From Nitrospinaceae bacterium (GTDB lineage: Bacteria; Nitrospinota; Nitrospinia; Nitrospinales; JACRGP01), in assembly GCA_029261555.1 (NCBI GenBank), contig JAJDBB010000095.1, positions 33,511-97,510 on the forward strand: a stretch of DNA of 64,000 bases, read 5' to 3'. Under the pieces are notes generated by a model. That model was not told the DNA's origin, did not search any database, and saw only the letters and a program-made list of their open reading frames with translations. Positions 5,721 to 19,440 of this stretch are shown here, piece by piece. Each line of letters opens with the position of its first letter. The stretch's first letter is position 1. A program made the position numbers and the translations under genes.

Positions 5721-5906
5721 TTCCCAACAGCAAGCAAAAATGATGATGCCAGAATCCGCTCGTTGGCACTCGGAGCCATAGACTTTCTTCCCAAACCTTT
5801 CAACCGGACAGAAGTGGTCGTGCGGATTACCAACATGTTGAGAGTGCAGCCCGTTTTGCAAACCCGCAAAGTATCCAAAAAGGATAAAGATTTGTTTAGG
5901 GGCTAA
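5721..5906 (+). pseudogene. Start-less remnant of a receiver domain (C-terminal half)
   Basis: Manual translation gives TASKNDDARIRSLALGAIDFLPKPFNRTEVVVRITNMLRV, which aligns with TANNNDEVKIRSLASGAMDFLAKPFNGVEMIARIKNILNV of the HD-GYP protein. It is preceded by an in-frame TAA (5718-5720). Confidence 0.75.
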
Positions 5907-7401
5907 GCAGTTGAGGTACTTCGTCAACTTGCAGGCCTGTGGTTTGTTGGATGAGTTGAATCACACTTGCATCCATCGTCTCCATCAATGGTCCGGGATA
6001 CAATCCAATACATAATACGAGGATAGCCAATGGAATTAGTGTGGCCAATTCCCGCTTCGATAAATCTGGGAGTACTTTGGCGACTTCTGTTGATGGCTCT
6101 CCCAAAGCCACCCTTTGGAGTGTCCACAACATATATGCGGCAGCTAAAACAATACCGCCCATAGAGATAAGAACCATGGCAAAGCTGACATAGGAGGTTC
6201 CTACTAAGACTAAAAATTCGCCAATAAAATTACAGGTGCCTGGTAGCCCAAAGGCGGCGACTGAAAATAAAAAGAACAATGCAACAAATCTTGGCATGGG
6301 TTTGTGTAAGCCGCCGTAGTCAGAAATCTCTCGACTGTGGGTGCGGTCGTACAATTGTCCAACAGCAATAAATAATGCTGCAGTAGTAATCCCGTGATTG
6401 AACATTTGCAAGACGGCCCCCTGGATGCCTTGGCTATTGAAAACAAAAATTCCGAGAGTAACAAAACCCATGTGAGAAACTGAAGAATAAGCCACGAGCT
6501 TTTTAAGATCCGACTGCGCCAAGGCCACGTACCCGCCATAGACAATGGCTGTGACCGATAGCCACAAAATATATGGGGCGAAAATTGCCGAAGCCTCTGG
6601 AAACATCGGCAAACAAAAACGTAAAAACCCATATCCCCCCATTTTCAACAGCACTCCAGCCAGAATCACGCTGCCAGCCGTTGGGGCTTCGGAGTGCGCG
6701 TCCGGGAGCCAGGTATGAAAGGGAACCATTGGCATTTTTATGGCAAAAGCCAGAAAGAACGCCAGGAATAACCAGTGTTGAGTGCTGGAAGAATAAGTTT
6801 GTTCAGATAACACCAACAGATCGTAGGTATGCCCTCCATTAAGAAAAAGACCCAATATTCCCACCAGGAGCAGTAAGCTTCCAGTTAGACTGTACAAAAC
6901 GAATTTAAGCCCAGCAGCAATGCGATTCGGTCCCCCCCATAGAATAATCATGAAATACATGGGAATCATTGTAAGTTCCCATAACATGAAAAACAGGAAA
7001 AGATCCAGTGCGGTAAAGACCACAATCATGGCGCCTTCAACTAACAGGATCAGCGAGAGAAAGGCTCGTACTCGTGTTTTAATTCCCGTCCACGAACAAA
7101 GGACACAGAGTGGACAAAGAAGGGCTGTGAGTAACACCATAAGAATACTGATGCCATCAACACCAACCGCATACTGAATATTAAACGTGGTCATCCATTC
7201 CACGCGTTCCACGAACTGCATGTCTGGCAGAGTGGAATCAAAATTCTTCCAAAGTATCAGCGAAAGGGCAAACACCACCAGTGTGATGCCAAAGGCAATT
7301 CGTCGAATCCATTCTTCATCACGCACAAATGCCAGAATGACGATTCCTAAAAAAGGAACGGCAATCATCCAGCTAATCAGATGATCCATCAATAGAGCCA
7401 T
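5896..7401 (-). CDS. NuoM-like proton-translocating antiporter-like subunit
   Basis: GVDGIS, TM5 Glu (LWELTMIP), TM7 Lys (FAIKMP), HTWLPDAHSEAPT, TM8 Lys (LLKMGGYG), LVAYSSVSHMG, TM12 Glu (NFIGEF). GGAGG RBS. Confidence 0.92.
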   Translation of the reverse strand: MALLMDHLISWMIAVPFLGIVILAFVRDEEWIRRIAFGITLVVFALSLILWKNFDSTLPDMQFVERVEWMTTFNIQYAVGVDGISILMVLLTALLCPLCVLCSWTGIKTRVRAFLSLILLVEGAMIVVFTALDLFLFFMLWELTMIPMYFMIILWGGPNRIAAGLKFVLYSLTGSLLLLVGILGLFLNGGHTYDLLVLSEQTYSSSTQHWLFLAFFLAFAIKMPMVPFHTWLPDAHSEAPTAGSVILAGVLLKMGGYGFLRFCLPMFPEASAIFAPYILWLSVTAIVYGGYVALAQSDLKKLVAYSSVSHMGFVTLGIFVFNSQGIQGAVLQMFNHGITTAALFIAVGQLYDRTHSREISDYGGLHKPMPRFVALFFLFSVAAFGLPGTCNFIGEFLVLVGTSYVSFAMVLISMGGIVLAAAYMLWTLQRVALGEPSTEVAKVLPDLSKRELATLIPLAILVLCIGLYPGPLMETMDASVIQLIQQTTGLQVDEVPQLLSP

Positions 7402-7526
7402 TTAAGAATCCTCCTGCCTACGAAAGAAGCAAACTTCCGACTTTTCAATTTAGCACAAGAAAAATGATGTAAGGCCATTCTCAACCAGATCCAATTTTTA
7501 TAATAGGGATAGAAACCGGGAACTCA

Positions 7527-9635
7527 TTAAACCATGATATACAATAGGCCAGTCATCGCCACTAACCAAAATATCATTACTAATAATTGATGTTTGATGG
7601 TACGGGATTCCATCTCTTGCAGTAATTTCGCTTCCGCAACTTGTTCTGCTACTTGCCCCACTTTCCCCTCCAACCACCGAATATCAACAATTCGCCATAA
7701 CCGCCTGGCAAAATGCACAGAATAAGTCGCGATAGAATTGACGAAACGATCTATGCCTCTTATATCCATAATTTGCCACAACCATCTGGCAAAATATACA
7801 GAATAAGTTGCGAGAGAATGGATGAAATGATCTATAACCCTTATATCAATATTTCGCCACATCCAGTGTGCGAACCGAATGGTTGGGGTTACCAGATAGG
7901 CCTCATAGATTTCATCAAAGTACCCTTTATTCCAAAACAGGACATACCATTGATTGCTTCTCGCATTTGCTTTGGAGACCTGATGTTGAGATCGAATCTG
8001 TGTTGAGTAGGCATAGACCCATCCCGCCACTGCCATGCCAAGAGAAACCACAAGCCAGAAAGAAAAGCCCTGCTCGACTACACCTTCGCCCAACGTGACT
8101 CCTGGAAAGTTCAAAGCTGGAGCTAGAAAATTGGCGAACCAACTCCAAAACAGAGTCAATAGCCCACCTGTAAAAATCGTAGCCAGAAAAAGACCCGTTA
8201 AAATGGAGCCATTTAAAAGCTGTGGTCGAACAGATTGCGCCTCCATACTATTTTGACCTGAAGCGGGCCAGTACGTCTTTGGACCGTGAACAAAAAGTGA
8301 GGTGACGCCTTTAAAAAGATATTGGGAAGCCACAAATACCGTGATCAAACCAATGATTTTGAATCCGATCGCGGCAGAAGCAAACCCCGTGATCGCCCAC
8401 AAATATTCATACGATCCGGAAAACAGCACAAACGGCGGGAGTAACGCCAACACCAGGGCTCCGCCATATAAGATGCCCATGCCTTCAGGGACACGGTGTT
8501 CATGGTCACCATGCTGAAGGCCCTGTTCCACGGATCGCAACGCATTGCCGGTAGATAGAAAAAAGAACGCTTTGTAACACCCATGGGCTAGAAGATGGAA
8601 AATCGCAACTGCAAACGCACCTAAACCACAGGCCATAATCATGAACCCGATTTGACTGATTGTGGAATAGGCCAAAACCTTTTTGATGTCCGATTGAGTC
8701 AAGGAAACTATCCCAGCAAATACCGCGGTAGTGGCACCAATAATGAAAATGACTGTCATGGCGTACGGAGAAAGGACAATCAACGGACTCAATCGCACTA
8801 GCAAAAAAGGACCCGCATTCACCATAGTAGCCGCATGAATAAGCGCCGAGACCGGAGTCGGCGCTTCCATCGCCCCGGGTAACCACACGTGAAACGGTAT
8901 TTGTGCTGATTTTCCCATAGCCCCCATAAAGAGAAAGAAGGGGATGAGCGTCACAGGATAGATATCAAGATTCAAGCCCACCCACCCTAAAATATTGATG
9001 GTATGGTTCTGCATTCCTTCCGCCTGAGCAAGAATAGTCTGGATATCGAGTGTGCCAAAGGTGAAAAAGGTTAGAATGATGCCAAAACTGAATCCGACAT
9101 CCGCGATTGCTTTAACGATAAAAGCTTTAGTAGCTGCCCGGGAAGCTGAAGGTCGTTCTGCTGCGTGAGAAATTAACAGATAGGAACAGATCCCCATAAC
9201 TTCCCAACTAATCAACAACATTAAAAGGTTGCCACTCATGACCAACAAAATCATAGAAGATGTAAACAAGGCAATGACGGCGAAAAAACGATTGTAGCGT
9301 GACTCTCCTATCATGTAACGAGAGGAATACACATGCACAACCCCACTTACTCCTGTGACCAAGAGCAAAAGCAGAACCGTCAGTTGGTCAACAAACAGAG
9401 TAAAATCAATGGTCAAGGAACCCGATTGAAAGAGGCGATAAAGAGAAAGAGTAAAAGGTCCATTTCTCAACACTTCAATGAAAGCGGCAACTGATAACAC
9501 AAAGGAAACACCGATGGCAGGAATCCCAATCCGGTGACTGTTCTCACCCCAACGACGTCCTCCAAGCAGGAGAATGAGAGAAGCCAGGAGGGGAAGCAAA
9601 GGAATGAGGGCGAAAAGAGCCATAATTTCCCTCAA
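7527..9635 (-). CDS. dabB: DabB/NuoL(NdhF)-like membrane subunit of a DAB-type inorganic carbon transporter, with extended lateral helix
   Basis: WEVMG, GKSAQIPFHVWLP, AMEAPTPVSAL, DIKKVLAYST, DabB-like VNAG and AHGCYKA motifs, NuoL-like tail NKGYFDEIY. In the same operon as DUF2309. Confidence 0.8.
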   Translation of the reverse strand: MREIMALFALIPLLPLLASLILLLGGRRWGENSHRIGIPAIGVSFVLSVAAFIEVLRNGPFTLSLYRLFQSGSLTIDFTLFVDQLTVLLLLLVTGVSGVVHVYSSRYMIGESRYNRFFAVIALFTSSMILLVMSGNLLMLLISWEVMGICSYLLISHAAERPSASRAATKAFIVKAIADVGFSFGIILTFFTFGTLDIQTILAQAEGMQNHTINILGWVGLNLDIYPVTLIPFFLFMGAMGKSAQIPFHVWLPGAMEAPTPVSALIHAATMVNAGPFLLVRLSPLIVLSPYAMTVIFIIGATTAVFAGIVSLTQSDIKKVLAYSTISQIGFMIMACGLGAFAVAIFHLLAHGCYKAFFFLSTGNALRSVEQGLQHGDHEHRVPEGMGILYGGALVLALLPPFVLFSGSYEYLWAITGFASAAIGFKIIGLITVFVASQYLFKGVTSLFVHGPKTYWPASGQNSMEAQSVRPQLLNGSILTGLFLATIFTGGLLTLFWSWFANFLAPALNFPGVTLGEGVVEQGFSFWLVVSLGMAVAGWVYAYSTQIRSQHQVSKANARSNQWYVLFWNKGYFDEIYEAYLVTPTIRFAHWMWRNIDIRVIDHFIHSLATYSVYFARWLWQIMDIRGIDRFVNSIATYSVHFARRLWRIVDIRWLEGKVGQVAEQVAEAKLLQEMESRTIKHQLLVMIFWLVAMTGLLYIMV
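7681..7876 (-). repeat. 81-bp (27-aa) in-frame tandem repeat, about 2.4 copies
   Basis: On the + strand, ATATC...GCCA units start at 7681, 7762 and 7843. Protein units: FAHWMWRNIDIRVIDHFIHSLATYSVY / FARWLWQIMDIRGIDRFVNSIATYSVH / FARRLWRIVDIR. Confidence 0.9.
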
Positions 9636-11101
9636 AGACCGGGTGGCAGAGCATGGTTTAACAACAGTTGAACAATGGGAGCACTGAATAAACCAAGAAT
9701 TATAATAGCTGTGGACGTGACTCCCAAAGTCAGTTTAAATGAGAGGGGAATTTTACCAAACTGAACGTCCGGTTGAGTTGATGTTTGGCGAAAAATGCTT
9801 TCAAACAGTTTAACGAAATAGGCAAGCGTCAAGAGCGTGGAGAGAACCACCGCGGCTACCGAAATATAATCGCCCGCTTCTAACGCTCCAAGAATGATGT
9901 ACCATTTGCCAAAAAATCCACCCGTCGGAGGCAGGCCAATCATGCCTAAGGCTACAACAACTAAAGATCCAGTAAGCCAGGGAGCTTTTTTTCCAACACG
10001 CCCTAAGTCGTCAATTGTTCTGATCCCATACTGAAAAAACGCGAAGCCTGCTATATAAAACAAGGCGGCTTGCATAACGGCATCGTTCAATAAATAAAAA
10101 ACTCCTCCGACAAACCCAGTTTGGTTGCCTTGACCGATTCCAATAAGAATGATGCCGATGTGTGAAATCCCTCCATAGGCAAACATCATTTTAATATTCC
10201 GCTGGGCCAAGGCCAGACTTGCGCCTATGACCGCCGCTAATGTTCCAAGAACTGCCACCAGTAGCAAAATCGGAATGTCATAAATGGCAATTGACACATT
10301 TAAGACCCAAAAGACTATTCTGACCCACGCCAATAGCACAACTTTCGTGAGGAGTGGAGCCAGGATAGGGGAAATAGAATCAGGAGCATGGGTATAGGCC
10401 TCGGGCATCCAAGCATGAAACGGGACTAAGGCCATCTTGATCCCTAAGCCAATAAATATAAAAAGCAGTCCACCCACTACAGCTCTAGAGTTTAGTAAAA
10501 AGGGAAGCCTCTCGGCCAAATCAGCCATATTCAGTGTGCCAGTCACCGCATAGAGATAACTCACTCCTAAAAGATAAAAGGAAGCACCAAGGGTTCCCAA
10601 TATAAGATAGCGAAAGGCTGCAAACAGCGCTCTTCCGCCAGCGACACCCACAAGTGCGTAACTCGAGATAGCGGCAACTTCTAAAAACACGAACAGATTG
10701 AATAAATCCCCAGAGAAAACAATGCCGGTCAAGGCGGATATTAATAACAAAATTAATGTGTAATAATGAGCGAGTCGGCCACCTAGAGCCTTTGGGGACG
10801 TGGGTCCAGCAAACACCACACCCAACAAACCCAAGGCACTCAATAACACCATGATGACACTCGCTAATCCATCAGCTACCCATTCAATACCGAGGGGCGC
10901 AGTCCATCCGCTAAATACATACCGCACCTCTCCATGATGAATGACGTTATAGAGATTTAAAATAGAGACCAGCACCATCGCCGCGAGAATTGCCACAGAA
11001 ATCGGCAGGCTCCAATGACGGTGTTTTAGACAAACCACTGGCATGGAAATAGCGGCAAACAATGGGAGAAGGAATAGGATTGCGGGAAGTTGGTGGCTCA
11101 T
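9632..11101 (-). CDS. mrpD: Mrp/Mnh Na+/H+ antiporter subunit D
   Basis: GWTAPLGIEWVAD, GDLFNLFVFLEV, LGIKMALVPFHAW, GLPPTGGFFGKW. Overlaps both neighbours by 4 bp. Confidence 0.9.
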   Translation of the reverse strand: MSHQLPAILFLLPLFAAISMPVVCLKHRHWSLPISVAILAAMVLVSILNLYNVIHHGEVRYVFSGWTAPLGIEWVADGLASVIMVLLSALGLLGVVFAGPTSPKALGGRLAHYYTLILLLISALTGIVFSGDLFNLFVFLEVAAISSYALVGVAGGRALFAAFRYLILGTLGASFYLLGVSYLYAVTGTLNMADLAERLPFLLNSRAVVGGLLFIFIGLGIKMALVPFHAWMPEAYTHAPDSISPILAPLLTKVVLLAWVRIVFWVLNVSIAIYDIPILLLVAVLGTLAAVIGASLALAQRNIKMMFAYGGISHIGIILIGIGQGNQTGFVGGVFYLLNDAVMQAALFYIAGFAFFQYGIRTIDDLGRVGKKAPWLTGSLVVVALGMIGLPPTGGFFGKWYIILGALEAGDYISVAAVVLSTLLTLAYFVKLFESIFRQTSTQPDVQFGKIPLSFKLTLGVTSTAIIILGLFSAPIVQLLLNHALPPGL

Positions 11102-11475
11102 TCCAATTTTTCAAGAATTTTTTGTTCGTCAAGGCTTCCATACTCTCGATAGATCGCCCCGCACAGGGCTAATCCCACGCCGAGGGTCGCCACGCCAACT
11201 ACAATAGCTGTTAGCGTCAAGACATGAGGTAACGGATTCGCATAGCTGGCCGCTTGCACCGGCTCCGTGGTTGACAAGAGCACGGGAACCGTCGCGCCCT
11301 TCTTCACACTAATAGACACCAGGAAAAAAATCACACTGGTTTGCACCAAATACATCCCGATGAGTTTCTTTACGAGATTGTATCGCGTAACCATGATATA
11401 AAAGCCCCACAGAAAAATGATGACAAATGTCAAAAAATTGGGTCGCTGAAAAACTGCAGAAAATGCATCAACCAT
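11098..11475 (-). CDS. mrpC: Mrp antiporter subunit C
   Basis: NLVKKLIG and NPLPHVLTLTAIVVG signature. Confidence 0.92.
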   Translation of the reverse strand: MVDAFSAVFQRPNFLTFVIIFLWGFYIMVTRYNLVKKLIGMYLVQTSVIFFLVSISVKKGATVPVLLSTTEPVQAASYANPLPHVLTLTAIVVGVATLGVGLALCGAIYREYGSLDEQKILEKLE

Positions 11476-11920
11476 TTATTGAATCCTCGATAATCTCTTC
11501 AGCAGACAAGCTGAACACGATAGAAACGGCTGTTACCGCAACATCGACAGCCACACCGATTTGCGTGAGTACGATTCCCAAAGATCTTCGAGAAGCAGTT
11601 TCTAAGCCTGGAATTTCCAAATTCGCATAATTGAGGAACTCTCCACCCCCAATCATACACAAGCCACCTACCCCCGCGAAGATCAGCATCCCGACGCCGT
11701 CAGCATGTAAAACCTTTTTGGCAATTTGACTCCGGGTATTGTCATGACCAAAAATCAAAACCGATAAGATCATCCCCATGCCTAGAATCACCCCACCCAC
11801 AAATCCTCCCCCTGGTCCGTATTGCCCAAAAAACAATACATGTAAACCGAAAATTTGGACCACCGGGATGAGAAAGCGCCCCAAGGTCTGTACGATAATG
11901 CTGTCGTGTGGGCGTATCAT
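11468..11920 (-). CDS. mrpB: Mrp antiporter subunit B
   Basis: GQYGPGGGFVGG signature, about 4 TM segments. Confidence 0.9.
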   Translation of the reverse strand: MIRPHDSIIVQTLGRFLIPVVQIFGLHVLFFGQYGPGGGFVGGVILGMGMILSVLIFGHDNTRSQIAKKVLHADGVGMLIFAGVGGLCMIGGGEFLNYANLEIPGLETASRRSLGIVLTQIGVAVDVAVTAVSIVFSLSAEEIIEDSING

Positions 11921-12447
11921 TATACCTGTCTCCTAAGCAGTAAAGCACAAGCAATGCCGGACGCAAAAATCACCACGGTTTCGATCATCGTATCAAGCGA
12001 TCGATAGTCCATCAGTACCGCAGTCACAACATTCGGAGTGTTGGTATCCTGATAGCTCTGCTCGAGATAGGTCGGCGAAATATGAACACTCGCTGGAGAA
12101 TTGGGGTCTCCAAATGCAGGAAGATCCTTCGCGGCATAGAGCAGAAGAACTCCCAGGAGAGGGAAAATAATTAACGTTGTCAGAGAAGGAGGCGGGCGCC
12201 GAAGCCGAGTGTCTTTGGGGGCAGTACCGAACAGAGTTAATAGAAACAGAACAGTAGCTAATCCTGCTCCTACGACGGCTTCAACGAAGGCGACGTCCAC
12301 AGCCCCAATCCATGCCCATACCAACGCCAGGAAAAAACTATAAGAGCCCAAGAGCAGAACGGAACTCATCAAATCCTTAACCATGATGGCTCCGGCGGCA
12401 GTAGTAAGCAGAAGAAGGAGTAAAAGAATTTGAACTGAAAAGGTCAT
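11920..12447 (-). CDS. MrpA C-terminal (DUF4040) / MrpB N-terminal-type subunit (split MrpA)
   Basis: AVDVAFVEAVVGAG and TPNVVTAVLMDYRSLDTMIE motifs. Confidence 0.88.
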   Translation of the reverse strand: MTFSVQILLLLLLLTTAAGAIMVKDLMSSVLLLGSYSFFLALVWAWIGAVDVAFVEAVVGAGLATVLFLLTLFGTAPKDTRLRRPPPSLTTLIIFPLLGVLLLYAAKDLPAFGDPNSPASVHISPTYLEQSYQDTNTPNVVTAVLMDYRSLDTMIETVVIFASGIACALLLRRQV

Positions 12448-12743
12448 GAGTTTTCCTTTTTCCAGGGTTTTAAACCAGACCGGAGAGCTGCGCGAACCGT
12501 GGCATGGGTAATGCCTGGATTTAGAATATATAGCAAGGCCAACACCACTAGAATTTTCAGCATATTAGTCCCCAGTCCTTCATGCCAGGCGATTCCAATT
12601 AACATCAAAAAGGCCCCTAAGGAGTCTGTCAATGATACGGCATGAGAACGACTAAACACATCGGGCAATCGTATCACTCCAATCGCGGCAACAATCAGAA
12701 AAAATAATCCCGCTACTATAAAAATAATGGAAAGTATGTCCAT
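12444..12743 (-). CDS. mrpG: Mrp antiporter subunit G
   Basis: IGVIRLPDVFSRSHA...DSLG...NPGITH. Likely start is the ATG at 12743. Confidence 0.92.
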   Translation of the reverse strand: MDILSIIFIVAGLFFLIVAAIGVIRLPDVFSRSHAVSLTDSLGAFLMLIGIAWHEGLGTNMLKILVVLALLYILNPGITHATVRAALRSGLKPWKKENS

Positions 12744-12744
12744 G

Positions 12745-13011
12745 CTACGAATGTCCCTTTTCTTCCAAATACTTGGCCACTGCAAGCGCTCCGACTAAAT
12801 TTAGCAGGGCATACCCAGTCGAAATATCAACAAACATATCGACTCGTTCAAAATAAACTCCAATGACAATAAGCAAAATAATGGCCTTGGTGGAAATGCC
12901 ATTGAGCCCCAACACACGATCAAAAACTGTGGGACCGCGCAGGACACGGTACAGATACGCACCAATGAGAATAGCCAGCAACACTAAAACGCAGAAAAGA
13001 AAAATTTTCAT
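12745..13011 (-). CDS. mrpF: Mrp antiporter subunit F
   Basis: YRVLRGPTVFDR signature. Confidence 0.92.
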   Translation of the reverse strand: MKIFLFCVLVLLAILIGAYLYRVLRGPTVFDRVLGLNGISTKAIILLIVIGVYFERVDMFVDISTGYALLNLVGALAVAKYLEEKGHS

Positions 13012-13514
13012 AAATCCGGCTCTTCGTCCTTAAAAATATCTGCAATTTTCGATTCAATCTGCTTACTAGTAATATCTTCGGCTAAAGTTTTATCCATCGC
13101 GTGAATAATGAGTTTATTACGGTCAACCTCTGCGGTAATTGTTCCAGGTGTTAACGTAATGGAATTACCGAGAAGAACAACGGCTGCGTGGTGACGCAGT
13201 TTTGTTTCTACAGAAATCAACTGAGGAGCAATGGGAAGCGCAGGATGCAAAATAAGCTTGGTCAATTGAAGGCTACTTTGAACGATTTTATAAAAAAGCC
13301 ATGGAAGGTAAAGCAGGATTCTGAGCCACAAACGAAATTTTGGAACAAAAGGTGAATGACCAGAGTTGATCCAAGCCACGGCGAAAGAACAAATAAACCC
13401 CAAACCAAGATGAATCCATGCAAAGCTGGCAGACAACAAAACCCAAACCACAAACAGCGCCATGGCTTTTAAAAACAGGAATTCGGATGATATGGGTCTA
13501 GTTCGAGTTGCCAT
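13008..13514 (-). CDS. mrpE: Mrp antiporter subunit E
   Basis: LLGNSITLTPGTIT signature. Confidence 0.92.
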   Translation of the reverse strand: MATRTRPISSEFLFLKAMALFVVWVLLSASFAWIHLGLGFICSFAVAWINSGHSPFVPKFRLWLRILLYLPWLFYKIVQSSLQLTKLILHPALPIAPQLISVETKLRHHAAVVLLGNSITLTPGTITAEVDRNKLIIHAMDKTLAEDITSKQIESKIADIFKDEEPDL

Positions 13515-13691: not shown

Positions 13692-16600
13692 TTAACTAAC
13701 ATGAACCGGTTCCCACGTCGCATTGGGATTGTACCGATGAAACTCAAAGTTATGGGGATTCAAGGCAATAAGGTTAAGCCATTGATTATGAAATAATTGT
13801 TGAAGGATCGAGTGTTTTTGAATGATAGATGTGATTACGCTCGGCGTCTGTTCGATGACAGCTAACAGTCGCATCGGTTCATGATAGTGAGCGTTCCCGT
13901 CATTGACTGTTTGTAAGGGGAGTCCCATTAGCAAATCACTTTGGGTTCCCAGCATCATCCCAACACCCCCAACGACATTGTGTAACACTTTACTCCCACT
14001 TCCATACGACCATGGATCAACGGCAGGAAAATAATAACCCATGCTAATCCACTCGCCGACTATTAATGGCGCGGTCATAATTTTTTCAAGGATGGCACCT
14101 TCAGGATCAGCAATAGGATCATAAGAATGCAAGAAAACCCGACCGCCTAAATCTAATCCTTTGGTCAGGTTTCGTCTTCCAATGAGAAACGCTCCATTGC
14201 CGGCCAATCCCCATTCCGGGCGAGTATTCGCCCAATCGCAACTGCGTTCGTCCACATGAGCAAATGCCTGCTGTGGAGAAATTTTAGTCGGCGCTTTAGG
14301 AATGTGATGGCATCGCTCAAGAGCCTGCTTGGCGCCAGCTTCTTCGAGATCCTTGTTCAACGATTGCAAATCTTCTTTATGCGAATCTGGCAATTCCTCT
14401 AGATCGTAAAACTCGACCCGATCAGTCGTCGTGTTATGTTTCCCCGGAAGAAACCAGGCGTCATCGGGAATCGGCAATCCTTTTTCCTTGAGAATGCGAC
14501 GAACATCAGGTTCATTCGCCATCGCGGCAAAAACGCGCGCATTGGCGTCGCCCGGCGCTCCCCCGCAAGCCCCGCAATCCAACGCCCCATAATAGGGATT
14601 GTTGTCCGTCTCACTTCCATGGCCACAGAGACACACCAACCGCGCAAAATTTTTGGTAAGCCCCATTCCACGCAAACCATTTTCGACAAATGTCGCCCGT
14701 TCCGAAAGAGAAAATCCCCGAGAAAGCCCGTCAGGAATTCCTTCCGCATTCACTTCTCCGATCCTGGGATTCTGAGGATCAGATGGCGTGGAAATTGAGA
14801 TCTGGGTTGGAACCCTATGCGTCAACCAACTCTGGATGGTAGAGGTCACTGCACGAAATGGTTTTTGGAGCAAGGTCTTGCCCACCAACCCCAGACTAAA
14901 AAACAACCCCAAGACGTCAATCACCATCATCGACCCAATCGGATGATGCTTCAGGTCGTGAAAAAGATGCCCCCCCAGTAGGCGCCAGCGACTACCGGAA
15001 GAATATTTTTCTAACGCCGCTCCTTCTCCAGACCGAGGTGTTTCCGTCACCGCATGGTTAGGAGTCAATAGCACCGGACATAAAATGGCACGTTGATTAT
15101 TATCAAAAGCTTGATGGCTAATGGGAATGCCAAAAAAACCTGCAAACCCAAACGTTTCATAGGGACCTTGGGCTTCAAGATGGCGACGAAATGATTCAGA
15201 ACGTACGTCGATACAAAAGACGAGTTGTGCCTGGGGACGCGTTTCCAATTCCGGTACCGTTCCGCGATGCGCTGAAATATTTCTCAGAATCTTCTCTCGA
15301 AAGGAATCTTCGTACGCCTCAATCCATACCCGTCCATGTTGATCGGCAGGAGAGTGCTCTATCCATTGCAACAACATCTGGGCGTCAGTAAGCGAGAGAT
15401 CGTGAACTTCTCTTGGAGATAACTCAAGAAACTGTGCCAAATGGAATAATCGCCAAACATGTCGGCATGTCATCTGTTTGGTTGGATCCCCAGATTGTCC
15501 TCCATGCCCCATTCGTTGGCGGTATTCCTCGGGTCGATCATTCCAATATGCAGTCAAGGTAGAAACCGTCCCGTCAATGCCCCATTCTTGTTGGCACTTG
15601 ATGTTGGTCAACTCCACTTCATAGAATAGACGCACGGCCAGATATTGCGTGGTGTCAATGGGATGTTTGTGTTGCGCATGGTATGTTGGGTGTTCCCCAA
15701 GCCACCGTATATATCGCGTCCAGCCTGGTAATAATGATAGTTGCCTTGAGAGGTAATCTTCCCATTGTTCTTGGGGAATTTCGAGTTGGTCCAAGCTGGA
15801 ATGGATCGCGTCCTCTGGATCTGCAGGAAGGCTATGAACTTTTTGGGCGAAATCTGTAACCCCGAGAAGCTGCCCCGAAAAATCTTTTTGCGCCAGGTTC
15901 CGCCATACTTGGTAGAAACCTTCTTCTCGGCCAGGCATTTCCCAGCCGGCTAATCCTTCATCTAGAAACGCCGTCACCCATTTGATGAGTTGATTATTGA
16001 TTTGTTCAACCACCTCACCCTCAGTCAAATTATCAACCCAATCGCTGATGGTCCGTTGAGGCGATAAGGAAATGGGCGCTGACGTTTGCGAATGCGAATC
16101 CTCGGAACTTTGAGATGTAGCTTGAAAATCAGATGGCACGAATGTGGCTAACACACTCTTCCACAAATTCGTCAGATAGGCCTCTTCTGGATACTCCCGA
16201 TTCTGCTCATATTCCTTGATGGTTTGTTCAATAATTCGTTTCTGGGATTCCTCGGAAAGATCTTGCCGAAACCGCTTTGTAGCTCCACCACCGCTTAACT
16301 CCCATTCCAAGAGGGATAGTGGCAATTCCTCGAGGCCAAAAAGTACGTGTAATTGCCAAACATCTTTGGCGGTAACTCTTCGACTTCCAATTTCAATAGA
16401 ACCTTGTTCATCTAGGCGAGGCCCAACTCTGGAAAAAGCACGCTCAAAACTTTCTTTGGTAATACGACCATTTCGGTAAAATTGACGATACTCCTCATTT
16501 GGGAGATACCCATTTCCACCAAGGAGGTCCTTGCCTTTTCGAACAGCCTGATCAAACGGCAGATATTCCAATCCATGAATAGGATTTTGCGCGACCATGG

Positions 16601-16715
16601 TCCGCATGGGCCAAAATGGCGCAATGGGTTCACTGGCGTTCAATACAATTTGCCGAACCTGATCGCGATCTTCTGAGGAAAGGGACTTCACTGAAATAGG
16701 ACTCATATTGAGCAA
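13692..16715 (-). CDS. dabA: DabA/MpsB (DUF2309, UPF0753) beta-carbonic-anhydrase-like subunit of an inorganic carbon transporter
   Basis: IAPFWPM...AQNP, Zn ligands in FCIDVRSE, GHGS and LDCGACGG, HNTTTD, RPEWGLAGN, FLHSYD, YGSGSKVLHNVVG, HEPMRL. Confidence 0.95.
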   Translation of the reverse strand: MLNMSPISVKSLSSEDRDQVRQIVLNASEPIAPFWPMRTMVAQNPIHGLEYLPFDQAVRKGKDLLGGNGYLPNEEYRQFYRNGRITKESFERAFSRVGPRLDEQGSIEIGSRRVTAKDVWQLHVLFGLEELPLSLLEWELSGGGATKRFRQDLSEESQKRIIEQTIKEYEQNREYPEEAYLTNLWKSVLATFVPSDFQATSQSSEDSHSQTSAPISLSPQRTISDWVDNLTEGEVVEQINNQLIKWVTAFLDEGLAGWEMPGREEGFYQVWRNLAQKDFSGQLLGVTDFAQKVHSLPADPEDAIHSSLDQLEIPQEQWEDYLSRQLSLLPGWTRYIRWLGEHPTYHAQHKHPIDTTQYLAVRLFYEVELTNIKCQQEWGIDGTVSTLTAYWNDRPEEYRQRMGHGGQSGDPTKQMTCRHVWRLFHLAQFLELSPREVHDLSLTDAQMLLQWIEHSPADQHGRVWIEAYEDSFREKILRNISAHRGTVPELETRPQAQLVFCIDVRSESFRRHLEAQGPYETFGFAGFFGIPISHQAFDNNQRAILCPVLLTPNHAVTETPRSGEGAALEKYSSGSRWRLLGGHLFHDLKHHPIGSMMVIDVLGLFFSLGLVGKTLLQKPFRAVTSTIQSWLTHRVPTQISISTPSDPQNPRIGEVNAEGIPDGLSRGFSLSERATFVENGLRGMGLTKNFARLVCLCGHGSETDNNPYYGALDCGACGGAPGDANARVFAAMANEPDVRRILKEKGLPIPDDAWFLPGKHNTTTDRVEFYDLEELPDSHKEDLQSLNKDLEEAGAKQALERCHHIPKAPTKISPQQAFAHVDERSCDWANTRPEWGLAGNGAFLIGRRNLTKGLDLGGRVFLHSYDPIADPEGAILEKIMTAPLIVGEWISMGYYFPAVDPWSYGSGSKVLHNVVGGVGMMLGTQSDLLMGLPLQTVNDGNAHYHEPMRLLAVIEQTPSVITSIIQKHSILQQLFHNQWLNLIALNPHNFEFHRYNPNATWEPVHVS

Positions 16716-16735
16716 CTTATTCCTGTCTCAGACAT

Positions 16736-16842
16736 AAAAAAGGCCAACCGCTTCTCCCCATCTCCAAGGAAATGGTTTGTAACATGGTTGGCTTGTGTTG
16801 CGGATGACTTCACAAACTGAATGCGTCAAACACCCCACAGCC
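16736..16842 (-). ncRNA. Candidate cis-regulatory leader RNA (riboswitch/attenuator) upstream of dabA
   Basis: Terminator-like stem GCCAACC/GGUUGGC followed by a U6 tract, about 20 nt before the start codon. Its 5' strand overlaps a competing helix GGCU-GUG/CAC-A-AGCC. Confidence 0.6.
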
Positions 16843-16997
16843 TTAAAAAGTTAAACTTAAGCCTAGAATGCCTATTCCTTTCAGTTTGAAACAAAAAGAA
16901 AATAAAAGTCTAGTCTTGATATGAAAAAAAAACAATCACTTTTACCATTTCCATCAAGAATTTCCGGAATGAGACAATACCACTGCTTGGACTGCGG

Positions 16998-17270
16998 TTA
17001 ACCGCTTAATTTAAATAGGTCCTCGTTACCGTCCGCGGGGCAAAAGATCACCTGGAATCCATCATTCAAGGTCATGCGTTTACCGCCGTTGCAGTCTGGG
17101 TCTTCAGCGGGCACCCATTTCTTTACCCCGCCATGGTCCTTTTGTAGCGGCAGGTAATATTTCAAGTATTCATCTTTAGAAGCGAAATGGTACTTCACAC
17201 CGGACTCGGGTCCCTGCGAACAAGCTCCCAGCCAAAGCGATATTAAAACCGCACAGAATATCGTTCTCAT
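16998..17270 (-). CDS. Small lipoprotein of unknown function (90 aa)
   Basis: Start MRTIFCAVLISLWLGAC with an LGAC lipobox and a GAGGG RBS. Confidence 0.7.
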   Translation of the reverse strand: MRTIFCAVLISLWLGACSQGPESGVKYHFASKDEYLKYYLPLQKDHGGVKKWVPAEDPDCNGGKRMTLNDGFQVIFCPADGNEDLFKLSG

Positions 17271-17519
17271 AGAAACCCTCCCGAAAGTATTGTCACGTTC
17301 ACCTATCCATTTAAATAAGTCGGGATCAACATCATTCCCACTATTGTACGTCTTTAAATGATTCTGGACCAAGAGCTGTAAATAAACTAGAGACACATTT
17401 GGTTTATAGTCCTTCGATAAGAATTGTGCAAGTTCAAGTTAAGCGACTCTGATGGGGAATGTTCAAAGGCCAAGCCGCCCCCCAGATAGCCACCCGAACA
17501 CACACCAATGTGCCCGGGG

Positions 17520-19364: not shown

Positions 19365-19440
<76 letters not shown>

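Follow-up and report, generated by a model that had tools for sequence, protein, structure and literature searches.

The question raised by this locus is what kind of regulatory element precedes the dabA operon of the window (viz. the whole stretch of 64,000 nucleotides that was analysed), and to what signal or partner this element answers. The preliminary description, made from the letters of the window, saw here a riboswitch-like leader that would possibly respond to CO2, bicarbonate, pH or a cation, and it named a protein antiterminator as its last alternative. On balance, we favour the reading that the leader, which consists of a conserved hairpin and a predicted terminator, is probably a protein-held on-switch, that its partner is likely the protein MpsC (DUF2294, PF10057), and that the window copy is likely an orphan, since MpsC was not found in its own genome or order.

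The dabA leader of the window and its predicted folds

The leader stands in front of an operon which, as described earlier, comprises dabA and, by Pfam, nine downstream membrane genes of the Mrp/complex-I type. The features of the locus are as follows, in the order of transcription.

16948..16977, minus strand: position of the sigma70-like promoter of the relatives (TTGACC-N16-TATAAA), from an alignment of 15 upstream regions
16790..16842, minus strand: conserved antiterminator hairpin, predicted from folding and the family alignment
16842-16840 with 16792-16790, minus strand: P1a, GGC/GCC, the base of the hairpin
16838-16836 with 16797-16795, minus strand: P1b, GUG/CAC
16835-16834 with 16799-16798, minus strand: 2x2 loop, GG/AA (family consensus AG on the 3' side)
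16833-16825 with 16808-16800, minus strand: P2, with a variable top above it
16736..16792, minus strand: predicted intrinsic terminator, GCCAACC/GGUUGGC round an inner hairpin, then U6, with its GCC in common with the hairpin base
13692..16706, minus strand: dabA (DUF2309), 1004 aa, first gene after the leader (PF10070, E 1e-267)
11098..13514, minus strand: small membrane subunits mnhE, F, G, MbhD/E-like, mnhB and mnhC-like (Pfam)
5896..11101, minus strand: MrpD-like, ND5/NuoL-like and ND4/NuoM-like antiporter-type subunits, to the end of the operon (Pfam, NCBIfam)

The leader RNA quoted in the preliminary description agrees letter for letter with the minus strand at 16842-16736, and its terminator is present as drawn: GCCAACC (16792-16786) pairs with GGUUGGC (16749-16743) round the inner hairpin (16775-16758), and one C and U6 (16741-16736) follow. 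Folding of the first 59 nt of the leader also gives the upstream helix GGCU-GUG/CAC-A-AGCC (z -2.77; as good in 3 of 200 shuffles), the terminator part alone (the 3' 61 nt) has a folding z of -2.75 (2 of 200 shuffles as good), and the energy of the whole 131-nt leader region is ordinary (z -1.28; 21 of 200 shuffles as good). The GCC at 16792-16790 is used both by the base of the hairpin and by the terminator, and the competition between the two folds, as well as the ON layout of a cis-acting leader in which terminator and antiterminator exclude one another, is supported by the predicted folds. The spacing of about 20 nt between terminator and dabA holds if TTG 16715 is taken as the start; however, the relatives read TCG at this place, and their common start is ATG 16706, at 29 nt from the U tract. 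A simple terminator and promoter scan of 16500-17500 found no promoter-like site and, because the loop is long, did not list the leader terminator; in the alignment of 15 upstream regions both promoter boxes are changed in the window copy relative to its relatives. A 91-aa ORF without a Pfam match lies upstream on the same strand (16998-17273, minus strand) and is a possible source of read-through into the leader.

The window copy scores 55 bits on the final covariance model of the family described below, a model which was built including this copy. Its P1b pair has the G-C form, at a place where the Nitrospirales copies have A-U (107 of 116) or G-U (6 of 116); it has a private A at 16798, where 113 of the 116 have G; one P2 pair is broken at 16804; and the private change to A also abolishes a competing pairing which is present in the relatives. 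The copy folds correctly, and it has an intact terminator with an intact operon behind it.

A cmscan search of the whole window against Rfam 15 gave no riboswitch or leader family at the gathering threshold, the sole match being a tRNA gene (19368-19440, minus strand). At E values up to 10, again no riboswitch or leader family was found for the window copy, and for two Nitrospirales copies the best results were terminator matches to unrelated sRNAs, below threshold. Neither this RNA nor the regulation of CO2/bicarbonate uptake in nitrite oxidisers or comammox Nitrospira is described among the literature matches listed, a search which did not extend to the supplementary lists of motifs in PMC5737381 and PMC11109978. 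A term search of the main text of PMC11109978 gave no match to this RNA, and the sul1 motif, as given in the available portion of PMC5737381, has other targets than this leader.

An RNA family on the carbon-uptake genes of nitrite oxidisers

With a model built from Nitrospinales, diverged copies of the leader were found preceding dabA in Nitrospirales, viz. in another phylum, and the final model gives 144 matches in 109 of 151 Nitrospirales genomes, with up to three per genome. (The first pattern, which was run over 401 genomes, gave about as many control matches as real matches, and six matches without the stem or a target gene were set aside.) The consensus reads GGC, a linker of 1-6 nt, GUA, GG, a variable stem, AG, UAC, RA and GCC, corresponding to P1a, P1b, the 2x2 loop and P2. 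From 129 matches, 116 unique copies were parsed (2 false matches were dropped, 5 were unparsed and the remainder were duplicates), and in these most core positions are 95-100% invariant; about 20 such near-invariant positions stand in small internal loops, and the stem varies freely. Among 103 model-aligned matches both sides change at 11 of the 15 pairs, with 124 cells against 33.7 when shuffled, and slid controls pair at 18-41% compared with 90% for the family structure, figures which come from an alignment that was fitted to the structure, was partly gathered by a fixed pattern and contains one spurious row. The pair at the base of P2 is UA in 72, CG in 18 and UG in 18 of the 116 unique copies, and the terminator, present in 114 of them, has covarying arms (AU 94/GC 19, AU 69/GC 42 and CG 72/UA 20). 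P1a is GGC/GCC in 94 of 114 copies, GGU/GCC in 7 and GGU/ACC in 1, and because of this near-uniformity it is supported by conservation and folding more than by covariation. No second conserved element or pseudoknot was found beside this one simple hairpin. An alternative pairing, 5' CUGUG/CRCAG, fits Nitrospinales but fails copies starting GGCCGGUA, and it was dropped as the family structure.

The gene that follows each of 129 matches, identified by tblastn against reference proteins, is DabB in 50 cases, DabA in 25, SulP in 25, MnhE in 23 and NhaD in one; the five matches without a gene call consist of one at a contig end, one facing a convergent mpsC, one before a further SulP by Pfam, and two false ones. 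The remaining 15 matches precede mnhE (6), dabB (4), dabA (2), sulP (2) and degP (1). A metagenome pattern which contained no term for the terminator gave at least 120 loci, of which 3 were too short; among the matches listed, at least 71 have an overlapping terminator, and at least 66 of these precede dabA, dabB, sulP or mnhE, compared with 1 of 46 without a terminator. The SulP proteins score under the cut-offs of the SulP, DauA and BicA models, and their substrate would, from the gene context, be inorganic carbon. Conservation and covariation upstream of homologous operons, which the preliminary description had proposed as the check on its claim, are both found, and they extend to the leaders of non-homologous carbon-uptake genes. 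This RNA family, which has no match in the catalogue and stands on the carbon-uptake genes of nitrite oxidisers, is real, and judged by the conservation and covariation in other genomes the window copy is far above chance. Searches with the model gave only 2 weak matches (E about 0.03) in 151 Planctomycetota genomes and none in 18 Nitrospinota genomes outside Nitrospinales.

Several arrangements of these loci may also be recorded. One cluster (G102; L282/L283) carries three copies of the RNA within 8 kb and a DegP-type protease gene inside it, in the order nhaD, RNA, sulP, mpsC (divergent), RNA, dabA, degP, RNA and mnhE-mrp. At another locus (L101:5389-5862, the same as L359) a copy of the RNA is followed by a convergent mpsC and only then by dabA. 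In some Nitrospirales (L197, L280, L442-L444) NhaR-like LysR genes adjoin the RNA or lie between dab operons.

MpsC as candidate partner, and the leader in Nitrospinales

If the transcript ends with the hairpin, then P1a is predicted to form with a probability above 0.5 in 92 of 98 copies, but once the whole leader has been made the predicted energies favour the terminator, not the closed hairpin, in 97 of 98, by a median of 5.9 kcal/mol; for the window copy the same calculation gives 1.00 and 0.94, with a terminator preference of 3.3 kcal/mol. Since the hairpin folds first and the terminator wins in the full leader, the conserved surface appears from these predicted folds to be that of the closed hairpin, viz. 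the ON form. An ON switch that was activated by bicarbonate or CO2 would increase uptake just when these are abundant, which is the wrong sign for such genes; a protein would fit, and so would Na+, alkaline pH or a metabolite that marks carbon limitation. The riboswitch-like reading of the preliminary description thus holds in so far as the leader is a conserved and covarying cis-acting terminator/antiterminator with ON layout; however, the CO2/bicarbonate/pH/cation ligand in its headline is less supported, because the ON sign is wrong for a plentiful ligand and because the presence and integrity of the element follow mpsC. Its last alternative, a protein antiterminator, is better supported.

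At 60 of 129 matches a divergent PF10057 gene is present no more than 700 nt from the RNA. The RNA and MpsC are both present in 98 of the 151 Nitrospirales genomes, the RNA only in 9, MpsC only in 5 and neither in 39, but these counts are not independent, as mpsC and the RNA are physically linked and the genomes are kin, and p-values calculated from them overstate the association. The nine RNA-only genomes include one with a contig end just upstream, one with a split mpsC and one with an mpsC remnant; among the five MpsC-only genomes, two have stops inside mpsC and in one mpsC is divergent from an SbtA-family gene without the RNA. A perfect core, in a scoring that allowed wobble and compensatory letters, is seen in 96 of 132 copies from MpsC-positive Nitrospirales genomes versus 2 of 10 from MpsC-negative ones. 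However, mpsC and the RNA may simply decay together in small genomes, because several of the MpsC-negative genomes are small (2.2-2.6 Mb) and in two of them dabA is truncated. MpsC was found in none of the 102 Nitrospinales genomes, of which 51 are at least 90% complete, in none of 301 Pseudomonadota genomes, and not in the window's own genome (86% complete) by a six-frame HMM search. A control search gave no MpsC in E. coli; Bacillus subtilis has a homologue.

The MpsC protein matches PF10057 only; it has no CAT, PRD or ANTAR domain and no NCBIfam family. Its AlphaFold model has a pLDDT of 92, no sequence relative of it was found in the PDB, and no clear fold match to the model was obtained with Foldseek (best E 0.014, the top rows being nearly all ribosomal chains) or VIA (best Z 7.2, unrelated proteins). 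In one Planctomycetota protein a receiver domain is joined to MpsC (REC-MpsC), which places MpsC as the output domain of a response regulator.

The mechanism that we favour would operate as follows. The GGC/GCC base of the hairpin and the terminator compete for one GCC; the hairpin is predicted to fold first and the terminator to win in the full transcript, which makes OFF the default state. MpsC would then bind the invariant core, viz. two 3-bp helices and two small purine loops, and hold the base shut, leading to read-through in the manner of BglG/LicT on RAT hairpins. MpsC would be active when inorganic carbon is short, and this is the most tentative step of the proposal. According to PMC6689103, expression of mpsA in S. 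aureus is 1.7-2.5-fold lower in 5% CO2, a difference that reached significance in one strain out of three. In the same source the delta-mpsC mutant shows normal growth in air, and E. coli is complemented by mpsAB alone. These last two findings speak against the proposal, as neither would be expected if MpsC were a required activator.

The leader has had a different history in Nitrospinales, the order to which the window belongs. The region was matched in 28 genomes out of 61 relatives examined, and when the 28 dabA loci were read by eye, the leader was present in 10, the hairpin and the 5' arm of the terminator were deleted in 5, a small helix-turn-helix-like gene (named by eye) had replaced the leader in 12, and other sequence stood in its place in one. 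The model from the 10 leaders gives 11 strong matches in 102 Nitrospinales genomes, one per genome and all preceding dabA; none of these copies has a perfect core, and in three of them a single deleted base inflates the score. The terminator is intact in 2 of the 11, versus 89 of 114 Nitrospirales copies, both basal helices fold in only 2 of the 11, and all 11 have C at a P1b position where the Nitrospirales have U. Divergence in Nitrospinales is lower in the core (0.233) than in the adjacent leader (0.310) and at fourfold sites (0.406), and in 8 dabA-anchored Nitrospirales copies it is 0.125 in the core versus 0.481 at fourfold sites; the constraint on the Nitrospinales core appears relaxed, not absent. 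By this comparison, the window copy seems to be one of the two most intact Nitrospinales copies, in a lineage where the RNA family is apparently eroding.

The DabA sequences of the Nitrospinota group in trees as a single clade (SH-aLRT 100) within the Nitrospirota, adjoining a locus with a similar leader (support 85-95); however, an AU test on DabA does not reject monophyly of the Nitrospirota (p 0.141). We infer that the operon was transferred into Nitrospinales with its leader, but without mpsC. If MpsC is the activator, then these species, in keeping the dabA-mrp operon and the leader without mpsC, would be left with an unregulated, leaky terminator, and their lineages would have weakened, deleted or replaced it.

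Some individual loci deserve mention. Two pre-dabA leaders (L004, L007) have a 12-nt duplication of the AAGCC segment, so that hairpin and terminator can coexist, which would uncouple the switch. The conserved dabA ATG is ACG in three others (L002, L003, L046), where the start must be elsewhere or weak. Nine in-frame stops in the first 460 codons of one dabA (L008), behind an intact terminator, suggest a frameshift. On a contig titled Phycisphaerales (L112), dabA nests among the Nitrospinota and the leader is deleted; this contig is probably mis-binned. In the window's own genome DabA occurs a second time (G000:C127:4-5213), accompanied by a fragment of DabB and a P-II-like gene, the leader there being cut by the contig start. 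A weak Nitrospinales match (L419), without terminator or target gene, was rejected.

It is possible, but in our judgement unlikely, that the RNA is a true riboswitch, viz. that the hairpin itself binds a small ligand and turns the genes on, with mpsC only a neighbour in the regulon or the maker of the ligand, which could be Na+, an alkaline-pH-linked cation signal, or a metabolite accumulating when CO2/bicarbonate is short. The near-invariant core in its small internal loops below a freely varying stem, the several non-homologous target genes of one pathway, an ON terminator platform like that of the Na+-I and Na+-II riboswitches, and the residual constraint in Nitrospinales are all consistent with this, as is the occurrence of nhaD directly upstream of 17 of 25 sulP copies, of NhaR-like genes upstream of 9 of 25 dabA copies, and of one copy of the RNA before nhaD. 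However, a riboswitch that acts by itself would be expected to persist in genomes lacking mpsC, and in these both the core and the terminator are eroded (although mpsC and the RNA may decay together); the RNA is one simple hairpin, with no further conserved element or pseudoknot found; and bicarbonate or CO2 would act with the wrong sign.

We regard as rather improbable a protein-operated or kinetic switch in which MpsC is not the activator, i.e. in which another RNA-binding protein acts, or MpsC acts negatively, favouring termination at high CO2. If MpsC were negative, then its loss would leave the operon on and the leader free to drift. The absence of a growth defect in the S. aureus delta-mpsC mutant (PMC6689103) is in line with such a switch, and so are the retention of the leader before intact-looking operons in 11 Nitrospinales genomes and the prediction that the hairpin base forms before the 3' arm of the terminator exists (in the 92 of 98 copies noted above). 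However, the conserved surface is apparently that of the closed hairpin, viz. the ON form, and the weakening or deletion of terminators where mpsC is missing suggests relief from unwanted termination. The idea of a chance hairpin beside an ordinary terminator, conserved by descent only, could draw on the ordinary folding z of the whole region and on the conservation of the entire intergenic region within Nitrospinales, but it is very improbable here and is already refuted for the family by the presence of diverged copies, as many as three in a genome, in front of genes that are unrelated, by compensatory changes and by the metagenome loci listed.

Leaders of similar layout are linked to mpsC in other phyla. 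In Planctomycetota, mpsC occurs in 12 of 151 genomes, and in five genomes a hairpin lies 88-204 nt behind mpsC and overlaps a terminator; it has GGC/GCC at its base, then a loop of two bases and another helix. A scan for this layout, which was designed after the hairpins had been seen, gave 5 distinct matches in 188,510 nt versus 11 background matches in 6.1 Mb of the window's own genome; the genes downstream of these leaders include PEP carboxykinase (as in L422, behind an mpsC-linked leader), argininosuccinate synthase and a second mpsC. An Anoxybacillus plasmid carries, in the interval that separates mpsC from an SbtA-family sodium-dependent bicarbonate permease, a hairpin with a GGU/ACC base (z -3.6) which overlaps a strong terminator; at the other two plasmid loci (three of seven plasmid matches were examined) a terminator is present with no clear matching hairpin. 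Because the covariance model matches none of the Planctomycetota and Bacillota leaders, these are analogues, alike in layout only, and not members of the family. An MpsC domain and PEP carboxykinase share one open frame at another Planctomycetota locus (L435:469-2424), and on a Staphylococcus pettenkoferi plasmid (L450:2180-7357) IS6 elements flank mpsA-dabA-ORF-mpsC, where mpsA is directly preceded by a terminator-like hairpin.

A wider proposal, which we offer tentatively and hold to be less probable than the MpsC-held switch itself, is that MpsC represents a new class of RNA-binding antiterminator, itself sensing CO2/bicarbonate and running an inorganic-carbon regulon through this hairpin and through the Planctomycetota and Bacillota analogues, and that the Nitrospinales acquired the operon for the pump but not the sensor. 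MpsC is widespread, has no assigned role and is dispensable for transport. As the RNA is defined (50-60 nt), its candidate partner is of 120 aa and the read-out is binary, the control of carbon uptake in nitrite oxidisers and the role of MpsC are both open to experiment in vitro or in a laboratory host, and these organisms need not be cultured. If the RNA is a riboswitch instead, then it is a new class with a carbon-uptake regulon and of equal importance. The Nitrospinales copies form a natural experiment, in which an RNA switch was apparently inherited without its presumed partner.

Comparison with known regulatory systems

The leader shares with riboswitches in general its cis position before non-homologous genes of one pathway, and its conserved core nucleotides within a covarying structure. 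The preliminary description did not recognise in it the fluoride, Na+ (DUF1646) or Li+ class, and this is borne out, there being no covariance match and the published conserved elements being absent; fluoride and Li+-II riboswitches are not among the matches at E values up to 10 for three copies. The Na+-I riboswitch (DUF1646, RF03071), as described in the available portion of PMC9337991, is likewise an ON switch in which a terminator competes with the aptamer (here by predicted folds), and it also has genes of the cation/proton antiporter type among its targets. However, the leader lacks the two-hairpin P1+P2 aptamer and the conserved P1-base and P2-loop sequences of the constructs published there, and RF03071 gave no match at the locus in 5 genomes, even at E 10. 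As in Li+-I (nhaA-I)/Na+-II (PMC9646797, in part), a G-rich run opens a variable stem, and the Na+-II variant uses a terminator; but the conserved P2 loop of the published constructs is lacking here, and cmscan gave no match for three copies at E values up to 10.

Among protein-operated systems, ANTAR regulators (AmiR, NasR; table 1 of PMC12591593) resemble the proposed one in that their output domain acts at the RNA level and may be joined to a receiver domain, as in REC-MpsC. However, ANTAR proteins target dual hairpins, according to the part of that source available, whereas here there is one long irregular hairpin, and MpsC has no ANTAR domain. The S. aureus mpsABC and DAB pumps share with the present operons their transporter families, a linked mpsC homologue and lower expression at high CO2, but no leader RNA or role of MpsC is described in the available portion of PMC6689103. 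With BglG/SacY/LicT and RAT, the candidate partner differs in having PF10057 only, without a CAT or PRD domain, the targets are inorganic-carbon transporters instead of sugar PTS genes, and the leader RNA has no Rfam match. As far as the available part of PMC12591593 goes, however, the likeness to these systems lies in the layout itself: a short stem-loop partly overlaps an intrinsic terminator and read-through follows when the RAT is held, several operons of one pathway carry the element, and the gene for the protein (here the candidate mpsC) lies beside or inside the regulated cluster.
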